Source: Blasia pusilla
Taxonomy: Eukaryota
Length of the DNA: 64,000 bases
Direction: 5' to 3'
Assembly: GCA_050084515.1 (NCBI GenBank)
Contig: CM114271.1
Span: 48,360,001-48,424,000 of the forward strand
Shown here: piece after piece, positions 51,482 through 54,400 of the stretch
Numbering within the stretch: the stretch's first letter is position 1
Layout: the number at the start of each line of letters is the position of its first letter
The notes under the pieces: generated by a model
The model's input: only the letters and a program-made list of their open reading frames with translations
What the model was told of the DNA's origin: nothing
Databases searched by the model: none
Translations under genes and position numbers: made by a program

Positions 51482-54400
51482 CGTCGTGCAAATCCACATC
51501 GTCATACAACATACATGGCTAACATACCATACTCACATACAAACATAACATAGACGAGAGCATCCATAAACACAAGTGTACCACAACTGAAATCCGTGAA
51601 AGACCTACTGTCATAAAACACGCATAGAATCACATGCAATCGAGCCAAACCCACTCCACGATGGGAGAATCGAGGTCGAAGCTTGCGGGAACCACCATAG
51701 CCAAGAGCTCTACTCACTACCAAGGCTAACTCCTAACGCAATAGGATCAACTCAAAGAACTAACTGTTCTTTGAGTGCACTCCACACTATTTCCTCCAAC
51801 CTAAGAGCGGGCCCTACTGGAAAAGTCACCCTCAACTGAGTAACCCCCAACCCTATGTATGAAACCGCATCTCTACCTAAACACTATGGCCCTACATAAG
51901 TTATGGCCTCTACTACCACACTTTACTCTACGACATAATTTGTATGGTCATGACAGGTGTCGTGCAAATCCACACTGTCATACAACATACATCACTAACA
52001 TACCATACTAACATACATACACAACATAGACGAGAGCATCCACAAACACAAATGTACCACAACTCGCCCCCCTAACTGGCGGTTAGGTCCCTCTAACTCC
52101 TAGGTAGCCCTACTACATGCTATACACTTTCGTGGGTGCACGAATCAAAAGGCCGGGTGCTAGGTTGCCCCATCGTTAGTCGCACATCTGTAATCCATAT
52201 CATGCAAAGATCAAGTCTTCTACCTCTCTTAAGTACATCCAGAACAAACCCACCTTCCAGTAGGAATAACATCCATACGTGGAGTCAAACACATCATGTG
52301 CCAACCCCTAGAACACCGATCACACACCAATATACAGGCTGCGTTACTAGTAGACCCACACAACATGCACCTCAAGCTAGCACGTATCATGGCTAAGCTT
52401 GGGTCAAAAATACCATCCACATTTGAAAGATGACATGGCGCACAATTATGCACATGGTCCTTCCAAAAAACTCCATCACAACCCTCCAACATAAGAACTC
52501 CAGAAGCTAACACCTCGCGCACTTATAAAATAGTGCGGCTTGTTGTCATATCCAAGGTTGTCGGTGAAATCTGCTGCAAATAGACATAGTCCCCCACATG
52601 GAACCTACAAATCGATGGTCGATAACCTCCACCCCGAATGGTTGCATACCGTAACGTATCCCCGTGTTGAGCAATGGCAAGAGTCTCAAAGGCTGTTGGC
52701 ATAACTCTCCGAAAGAGCTCTGCCCACTGAGAACACACTCTCATCCACATCGCTAGATCATCAAGGTTCACCACCTCACTAGACTCCCGACGAATTACTG
52801 CTGGCAAGTCTAGATCTCGGCCGTATAACAGAAAATAAGGTGAGAAGGAAGCCGAGGATGCTTGGCGACTGAACCTATACCCCATGGCTAACCATGCCAA
52901 CTGAATATCCCAGTCTCCACGATGCCCCTTCTATAGGCCATACTTGCGCAATGCCCTCTTCACCGTCTGAACCACACCCTCAGCCAAACCATCTGCCTCT
53001 AGATGATCTCGAGACGTAGTCTGATGATCAATCAACGCCTTGTCACACAAGACTTGAAATTCACCCCAAACTCAGACTCGGTCTGGTGGTCAAGACTTCG
53101 GTGGTGCACCAAAATGACTAAGCACTCTATCAAGAAATGCATACACCGTTCCCTCACTTGCCTTGTCAGGTAATGCCACCAACTCAATCCACTTGGAGAA
53201 GTGCTCCACCATCACCAACACATATCGATGATGTCATACAGTCAACGGTAACGGTCCCCCAAAGTCCACACTCCAAGGATAACCCAACCCCATAATAGGC
53301 AAGCGGTGTAACTGTGGTGTAGGGGCATTGAATGATGCCCTCATCCGGTCACAAAACATACAACGTTATACCAACTCGTGCACCTGAGTATGCATGGCAT
53401 GCCACCAATACTGAACAAGGAGTAAGCTATACGTACGCTTTACCCCAAAATGTCCCAACTCCTCATGGGCATGTCGCACAATGCACTCTCTCTAAGCCAA
53501 ATGCGGCACTACTCGTACTCTACCATCTTCCCACACATGGAGAATATGTGTTCCCTCCAATCGATACCTCTTAGCACGTTGAAGAACACGGTCTCGCTCC
53601 TTGGCACCCTACTGGTCCGTAGGAACTCCAACACCAACGCATCATCATGAATATCACGCTGATCCGTACCACCATCTCCAACCTTAGGATCTAAAGGCTG
53701 GCCATCTACCCTCTAACTAGAGTAAGATGTCATGTGGTCCTCCATACTGGAATCCACCCCTAACCAACATAAAAAGGCAGATGCATGCCAACCTAGCACC
53801 ATCTCCTCATCAACCTTGCCATGCCATCTAGCCCCAGTTGCATCCTTTTGGTTAGTACATGGGTTCCTACTCAACCCATCAGCATCAAGGTTGGCAACTC
53901 CAGGTCGATGTACCACTTGGAAGTCATACTCCTGTAAGATAAGAGCCGACCGTGCAAGCTTCCTTGTAAGCTTGTCAGACTCCATCAACCACTTGAGCGG
54001 CTGGTGATCAACAACAAGGGCAAACTATGTGCCAAACAAGTAACACCTAAAGTGTGCCACAGCCCACACTACTGCCAAGCACTCTCCCTCAAATGAACTA
54101 TAGCGCGACTCCGCTGCATTATTTGAACGACTTGCATAGGCCACCACAAACTCCATGTGCTCATCATCATGTTGTGTCAACACCGCTCCAAGTCCCAACC
54201 TACTCCAATCAGTGTGTAACTGAAATGGGCACCCTTTGATAGGTCTCCTCAAGATAGACGCCGTCACCAATTGGGCCTTGAGCTCCACAAAAGCTCTCTC
54301 ATGATCATCTCCCCAGTGCCACTCCTGATCTGATTTCAGCAATTGGCTCAAAGGCTTTGCCATAGCACTAAACCCCTTCTCATACCTCTGATAGTAGTTT

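Follow-up and report, generated by a model that had tools for sequence, protein, structure and literature searches.

The prevailing view is that integrases of long terminal repeat (LTR) retroelements work on the two termini of linear complementary DNA (cDNA) and that circles are dead ends. A retrotransposon terminus in the liverwort Blasia pusilla raises the question of how an element integrates when its genomic ends are not the ends that reverse transcription would make. The terminus lies in a stretch of 64,000 nt (assembly GCA_050084515.1, contig CM114271.1, positions 48,360,001 to 48,424,000 of the forward strand), referred to below as the window, and is the 3′ end of a degenerate Ty3/gypsy-type retrotransposon of a streptophyte lineage, hereafter D. 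It is built from two repeats, A and B, which follow a polypurine tract (PPT) in the order A-B-A. Guided by the ends of D, of a second copy in the window and of relatives from metagenome contigs, we propose, with a probability of roughly 0.6, that integrated copies would be circular permutations of the reverse-transcribed DNA, the cDNA ends having been joined and the A/B junction opened by integrase.

Termini of D and of its relatives

Read base by base on the minus strand from 52075 to 51482, the end of D consists of the PPT, a first unit of repeat A (A1), CC, repeat B (B2), GT and a second unit of repeat A (A2), followed by (GA)55 (Table 1); coordinates and letters agree with those given in a preliminary description of this DNA. 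The two A units are 92% identical over 106 nt (91% over 103 nt in a second comparison). The same description had placed an abutted inverted repeat at the A/B boundary, which reads GACA-CC-TGTC in D but is imperfect in a second copy of the family in the window, copy A (CAACA-AC-TATCA). It had also equated the B/A2 spacer with the last two bases of the PPT, which holds in part: the spacer is GT in D versus AT in the close relative L003, only the T being constant, and this T probably belongs to repeat A. At the other end of D, 9.3 kb from the 3′ copy, the final 180 nt of B are found again at 61059-60880 with 94% identity, together with an extra 19-nt patch of B at 61079-61061, and this 5′ copy (B1) runs directly into CTCAAAGAAC... 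with no A after it, as had been noticed before. Sequence comparison bore out the same PPT-A-B-A layout for copy A, where A1 and A2 are 86% identical and B measures 513 nt; its repeat-A units match those of D in the 3′ half only, and its B in the last third only.

Table 1. Positions of D, of its parts and of related copies in the window
Feature	Position	Strand	Remarks
Copy A	about 10161-17742	+	degenerate gypsy copy
3′ end of copy A	16957..17742	+	PPT 16957-16970, A1 16971-17098, AC, B 17101-17613, A2 ~17614-17742
5′ part of a B unit of a related element	17743..18027	-	opposite orientation; 70% like the B of copy A
Copy B	30203-32519	-	degenerate gypsy copy
Copy C	40186-44014	+	degenerate gypsy copy
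Isolated A unit (47006-46881) behind three 32-nt units	46881..47101	-	flanks CCAC / CCTC
D	51482-61079	-	degenerate gypsy copy
A2, terminal copy of repeat A	51482..51585	-	104 nt; integrated 3′ end of D stops at ...CACGAC(A)
B-to-A2 joint, GT	51586..51587	-	U5 (unique 5′) end of cDNA meets U3 (unique 3′) start; varies by ~1 nt among relatives
B2	51588..51955	-	368 nt; TGTCATG...GGATTTCA
2-nt spacer CC within GACA-CC-TGTC	51956..51957	-	proposed integrase cleavage junction
A1	51958..52061	-	104 nt; TGTGG...CACGACA; start of LTR as defined by reverse transcription (U3); directly 3′ of PPT
Polypurine tract region, ...TTAGGGGGGCGAGT	52062..52075	-	within a block conserved between copy A and D
PHD finger, integrase C-terminus	52232..52522	-	PF00628, E 3.6e-8, above cut-off
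DDE integrase core (rve) fragment	53093..53233	-	broken frame; E 2.6e-6, 28.1 bits, below the 32.6 cut-off
Reverse transcriptase and RNase H	53716..54873	-	open reading frames 54028-54873 and 53716-54024
C5 DNA methyltransferase remnant	56158..56394	-	upstream of reverse transcriptase; E 0.0016, below cut-off
Primer-binding-site position	60868..60880	-	ACTCAAAGAACTA; overlaps last base of B1
B1, 5′ copy of B	60880..61079	-	shortened; B positions 189-368 and 146-164 alone remain

Relatives came from a protein-profile scan of metagenome contigs, in which 80 of 550 loci were kept; all 80 were compared with themselves and their ends were read base by base. L001, L002, L003, L005 and L006 are 75-84% identical in protein sequence to the reverse transcriptase (RT) of D, and the members of a second family (L008, L009, L016 and L018) and a third (L004 and L010) are 41-57% identical. 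Twelve 3′ ends were examined, those of D and copy A included, and 11 of them are complete. The order PPT-A-nn-B-x-A, where nn is the A/B spacer and x the B-to-A joint, followed by unrelated flank, is found in D, copy A, L004, L009, L016 and L008, the last with a rearranged A1/B junction. L018 has lost the PPT region and reads A-nn-B-x-A, L003 ends in B-x-A after an internal deletion, and L005 reads PPT-A-GC-B up to the contig end, where its 3′ end is incomplete. Three further elements (L002, L006 and L010) carry PPT-A and then flank, without B2-A2. As the preliminary description had predicted, the 3′ ends that are complete terminate in the CA of A (11/11 at ...ACA, 8 as B-A and 3 as a single A) and the complete 5′ ends begin at the TGTCA of B (TGTCATG in L002, L005, L006 and L018, 4/4). 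No repeat A lies upstream of B at these four 5′ ends, BLAST placing A at the 3′ side only.

Target duplications, likewise predicted outside the start of B and the end of A, are perfect over 4 bp in two of the three elements with both ends, L002 (...AAC[TACA]-TGTCATG...CACGACA-[TACA]CCCC) and L006 (...CA[TACA]-TGTCATG...CACAACA-[TACA]CAAC); in the third, L018, the flanks CATT and CATC match at 3/4 positions. In place of the equal LTRs at both ends that characterize gypsy elements, the 5′ side holds B only and the 3′ side A-B-A or A. Symmetrical A-B LTRs at both ends, an arrangement that the preliminary description had set against its own proposal, were seen in none of this lineage's copies.

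The boundaries between the units are base-exact in at least three families, whose RT identity to D ranges from 84% to ~41% and whose LTRs are unalignable with one another. The PPT adjoins the start of A in all ten copies that retain the region, and the A1/B2 spacer, between the ...ACA of A and the TGTCA or TATCA of B, is exactly 2 nt long in the seven intact junctions (CC, AC, GC, AT, AT, TA and GC). The B start TGTCATG and the A end CGTGACA or CACGACA form an inverted repeat at 5-7 of 7 positions. At the other side of the LTR, a conserved motif at the primer-binding site (PBS), not of the tRNA type, adjoins the end of B in D, L002, L005 and L006. Because the PPT adjoins the start of A and the primer site the end of B, linear cDNA should read A-B...A-B. 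The integrated copies read instead B-(PBS)...(PPT)-A-nn-B-x-A, or B...A, and contain a joint between the end of B and the start of A. In the L008/L009/L016/L018 family the ends defined by reverse transcription (ATACATG... and ...AATTTAAT) lack TG and CA, which the A end and the B start possess. Two other delimitations of the LTR were rejected: an LTR of A only, B2 then being a second unit with an internal deletion, since no A precedes any 5′ B and no PPT precedes A2; and B-A, since the PPT adjoins A1 and not B. The ends made by reverse transcription demonstrably differ from the integrated ends, which sit at the internal A-nn-B inverted repeat.

Other loci were set aside. The termini of L033, L036 and L011 gave no clear reading. 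L042, which appeared to read A-B...A-B-A, proved to be an LTR-sharing tandem array of an unrelated gypsy element (38% RT identity, 189-bp LTRs) in which A is followed by TTTGGTATCAGAGC. An exact 20-nt pattern of the PPT block had 0 matches in viral_contigs and 0 in metagenome_contigs. Protein matches in viral_contigs were not used as relatives, the best being only 42% identical and most caulimovirus-like; in 13 of 16 viral_contigs screened, the only long-range repeats were 100% terminal overlaps of 49-156 nt, that is, assembly circles. Several IMG/VR 'viral' contigs with gypsy-like RT (L082-L093, L145 and L147) are circular assemblies with 100% identical terminal overlaps of 49-156 nt, and most likely derive from collapsed LTRs, not from viruses.

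Proposed integration from joined cDNA ends and competing explanations

In the mechanism that we propose, the two cDNA ends would be joined before integration, whether ligated to form a 2-LTR circle or linked by RT jumping end to end between templates. A DDE integrase would then act on the A-nn-B junction in the LTR beside the PBS, nicking 3′ of each CA; the 2-bp spacer there would give ordinary 3′-processed, recessed CA-3′OH ends with 2-nt 5′ overhangs, and these ends would be inserted with a 4-bp stagger. The remaining internal A-nn-B junction would pass the cleavage site on to the next generation. Among close copies, the B-x-A joint differs by ~1 nt (G in D versus A in L003; AAT in L009 and L018 versus AA in L016), which fits a joint that is re-formed in each cycle. 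Since B...A-B-A keeps the R (repeated) region in both copies of B, such an element would stay replication-competent. The single-A copies (B...A) would be dead-end products with three conceivable origins: 1-LTR circles, linear cDNA processed internally, or a later recombination of A1 with A2.

Alternatively, RT alone might make a permuted linear cDNA, B...A-B-A, so that integrase would act on ordinary linear ends with no joined intermediate. Such a molecule would need alternative priming of the plus and minus strands at the A/B junction, unless template switches were programmed. Some RTs do jump between templates end to end, and the TG...CA ends and the target duplications are as with linear substrates. 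However, the PPT beside the start of A is the sole one (10/10 copies that retain the region), the end of A is not purine-rich and nothing resembling a tRNA primer site lies at the start of B, and the internal joint between the B end and the A start would still require that ends defined by reverse transcription be joined. We therefore consider this route unlikely.

Less probable still is replication in the manner of DIRS, Ngaro and PAT-like elements, in which a closed circle would be inserted by a recombinase acting in trans or by host recombination, with TACA as the crossover core. The repeat layout is exactly a split direct repeat, as far as the available portions of PMC8969392 and PMC5890265 describe it, the duplications of L002 and L006 are the identical TACA, and all three single-A ends (L002, L006 and L010) are followed by TAC(A/C). 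On the other hand, the 8 A-B-A/B-A ends, none of them followed by TAC, have unrelated flanks; no tyrosine recombinase was found in D, copy A, four relative proteins or six open reading frames (ORFs) of L005; and the DDE triad is invariant in 16/16 relatives. The third possibility, that ordinary A-B LTR elements inserted first and then had their ends rearranged through tandem insertion, deletion or unequal recombination, draws on the existence of LTR-sharing tandem arrays (L042, of an unrelated gypsy clade with 189-bp LTRs) and on a 9-nt A-like remnant at the 5′ end of D, but is highly improbable given the base-exact layout in at least three families with unalignable LTRs, the lack of A at all four 5′ ends and the target duplications at the B start and the A end. 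The remnant, CACGACACC (61080-61088, minus strand), precedes B1 and is identical to the A end plus the CC spacer; when 61040-61700 was aligned to A+B for a larger remnant of A upstream of B1, the score was no better than those of shuffles.

Several points weigh against integration from joined ends. The circle or joined-end intermediate is one that we infer from integrated copies alone, all copies examined are old and degenerate, which bears on activity, and the 5′ end of D itself is uninformative, being shortened and having the A-end-like CACGACACC ahead of it. Elements with two ends number only three, and both perfect duplications are TACA. The TAC that follows all three single-A ends could hint at a second pathway. 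A 2-LTR circle would offer two A/B junctions, and only one permutation is seen, the alternative B-A-B...A having been found at 0/4 5′ ends; the model therefore needs a choice of junction, or selection, R being retained at both ends in B...A-B-A only. A wider version of the proposal, in which the lineage, from streptophyte algae to liverworts, integrates obligatorily from joined-end cDNA by cutting at a circle-junction mimic built into the middle of its LTR, is put forward tentatively, at slightly below even odds.

Coding content, priming and other copies in the window

The preliminary description had called D a DDE-integrase element, and the coding content upholds this. The order RT - RNase H - integrase with a DDE core and an HHCC zinc finger, as in gypsy elements, is present in the window and in the relative proteins P0036, P0019 and P0005, and the intact P0036 reads protease - C5 DNA methyltransferase (DNMT) - RT - RNase H - HHCC zinc finger - rve - PHD. 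The D, D(35)E triad (D735, D795 and E830 of P0005), the HHCC residues and the PHD cysteines are each invariant in all 16 aligned relatives. Phage_integrase (tyrosine recombinase) matches were absent from the 92 ORFs of 110 aa or longer in the window, and likewise from the 59 ORFs of 45 aa or longer on the strands that encode D and copy A; none was found in the four relative proteins (three with integrase and PHD) and six L005 ORFs mentioned above, and the domain is absent from the precomputed Pfam domains of the 120 listed relatives. Many of these relatives carry rve and PHD, often also PF00145.

The nearest proteins to the RT/RNase H of D are from Marchantia (80%) and Calypogeia (74-77%), then from Klebsormidium, Chara and Closterium; the Klebsormidium proteins P0040 and P0088 are 44-51% identical. 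A C5 methyltransferase (PF00145) between protease and RT is clear in P0001 (Marchantia), P0019, P0036 and L005, and the position in L005 that corresponds to the remnant in D (L005:8183-9532) matches with E 7e-9. Judged by these domain matches, gypsy elements of liverworts, like those described from Klebsormidium, contain a DNMT. A long frame (57856-59406, minus strand; 354 + 162 aa, interrupted by one stop), which has no Pfam match, lies upstream of gag/protease in D; copy A has no counterpart to it upstream of 10161.

At the primer-site position, ACTCAAAGAACTA is complementary over 13 nt to TAGTTCTTTGAGT, which lies within B, 175 nt before its end, a match reached by 0/500 shuffles of B. It belongs to a palindromic motif, CTCAAAGAAC-nnn-GTTCTTTGAG, of which one copy lies in B (~51750-51776, minus strand) and a second at the primer-site position, the second arm of the copy in B (51762-51750) being the complement of the primer-site position. 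Counterparts occur at L002:2170-2200, L005:4525-4560 and L006:4620-4650; the match to B extends over ~24 nt with 2 mismatches in L002, and in L005 and L006 the copy inside B stands directly 3′ of TATAAA. No such complementarity between LTR and primer site was found in L018. From sequence comparison, these features suggest that reverse transcription may be self-primed, as in Tf1, rather than primed by a tRNA.

Copies A, B, C and D are mutually related, and the family is very abundant, with a summed read depth of ~740-1800 per bin in ~1% of two whole-genome shotgun runs; the bins, of 329 nt, are too coarse for A:B ratios. In the two runs, at least 942 and at least 932 reads leave D at 52064, after the PPT, and continue into an A of the copy-A type, so that most members of the family carry a copy-A-type A after the PPT. 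The sequence upstream of B1 of D (61060-61300), unlike A or B, is itself high-copy (depth ~740).

Two fragments of related elements lie elsewhere in the window. The end of A2 of copy A (17742/17743) touches an inverted 5′ fragment of the B of a related element (18027-17743), which begins at B position 3, has no A upstream and is cut by the end of copy A; its remainder was searched for upstream of copy A and not found. Similarly, the end of A2 in L009 touches an A fragment of the L004-type family (L009:5075-5142), and elements of this kind may insert near each other's ends. A third fragment had been credited with the same junction as D and copy A; what stands is an A unit (47006-46881, 78-81% like repeat A of copy A) after a tail resembling a B end, and the likeness of the junction is loose, the tail lying within a triple 32-nt repeat. 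The three 32-nt units (47005-47101) begin with TGTCAC and end with CTTGATTTAAT, which resembles the B end of copy A. The whole of 46881-47101 may be a solo remnant of B-A, with its flanks tentatively read as a target duplication.

Further features of the window are listed here for completeness. A GH3-family (acyl acid amido synthetase) gene with at least 3 exons (24951-27875, minus strand) lies among the retrotransposon copies, and a weak RVT_1 match (49811-50434, plus strand), between the A fragment and D, probably belongs to another, unrelated retroelement. The 64 kb contain four (GA)n/(TC)n microsatellites, each 85-130 nt long (33640-33800, 34204-34298, 35981-36067 and 51372-51482), the last of which directly adjoins the 3′ end of D. 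An inverted repeat of ~800 nt, 98-100% identical between its arms (61510-62315 and 63203-64000, spacer 887 nt), reaches the window end with one arm and may extend beyond it; candidate identities are a foldback element, a transposon with long terminal inverted repeats and an assembly hairpin.

Significance and relation to known systems

D is a land-plant member of a barely characterized kind of element, of which the termini, the spacer, the positions of PPT and PBS and the target duplications are new. With it, the retrotransposons that encode a cytosine methyltransferase of their own come to include land-plant members. In annotation, programs built to find two equal LTRs will misidentify or overlook this abundant family, and split-repeat gypsy elements may be mislabelled as DIRS. 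Use of an internal circle-type junction by a DDE integrase in vivo is directly testable, as close relatives exist in the tractable Marchantia. If the wider version of the joined-end proposal is true, the element would be a natural, fixed form of the long-abandoned model in which the circle junction is the integration substrate and a mechanistic bridge between LTR and DIRS elements, and its lineage, which carries its own DNA methyltransferase and PHD reader, may also self-prime like Tf1.

The closest counterpart is KnitGypsy-Dnmt3 of Klebsormidium nitens, to which the legend of Fig. 4c of de Mendoza et al. 2018 attributes 'the same' repeat structure as DIRS, with gypsy-like domains (PMC5890265). 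The split-repeat gypsy layout is thus not unprecedented. Like our elements, KnitGypsy-Dnmt3 has DIRS-like repeats and a gypsy-type pol whose polyprotein includes a C5 DNMT, as described in the available portions of that paper. These give no termini, target duplications, PPT or PBS positions or mechanism; KnitGypsy is not mentioned in three supplementary text files, and the PHD finger is unmentioned ('phd' occurs 0 times in the main text of PMC5890265). KnitGypsy-Dnmt3 is algal, whereas the copies in the window are from a land plant and degenerate. No prior description beyond PMC5890265 was found in the literature searched, subscription journals lying outside its coverage.

In DIRS elements the split direct repeat is A1-internal-B1-A2-B2, in the available portions of PMC8969392, and this order, shared by Ngaro and PAT-like elements, equals the B-internal-A-B-A found here with the letters swapped; the element bears on the origin of DIRS-type split repeats. 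The non-autonomous TOC1 of Chlamydomonas has been called a DIRS element (PMC9940879). DIRS elements also carry a methyltransferase domain in pol, but of a different kind from the C5 DNMT seen here, and they have a tyrosine recombinase and no target duplications, in contrast to the DDE integrase, PPT, TG...CA ends and 4-bp duplications of our lineage.

Self-priming of reverse transcription is known from Tf1-type LTR retrotransposons. As in Tf1, the primer-site sequence is complementary to the LTR near the likely start of the transcript, predicted at about GTTCTTTGAG in B (13 nt in D, ~24 nt in L002); in contrast to Tf1, the motif is palindromic and occurs twice, and L018 is without a match.

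For the proposed cleavage, the available portions of three papers describe how foamy virus or HIV-1 integrase cleaves the palindromic LTR-LTR junction of 2-LTR circles (PMC1180852, PMC1905944, PMC4372172). There, as is proposed here, and as far as these portions go, a DDE enzyme cuts an internal junction of abutted ends within a circle and restores integration-competent ends. The retroviral junction consists of ligated U5 and U3 ends, and the route is minor or debated, whereas here the site would be built into the middle of the LTR and its use obligatory. A further parallel is the circle junction of IS3/IS30-type elements (copy-out-paste-in), in which inverted ends abutted 2-3 bp apart are an active substrate of a DDE transposase; these differ in being bacterial DNA transposons that move without reverse transcription.

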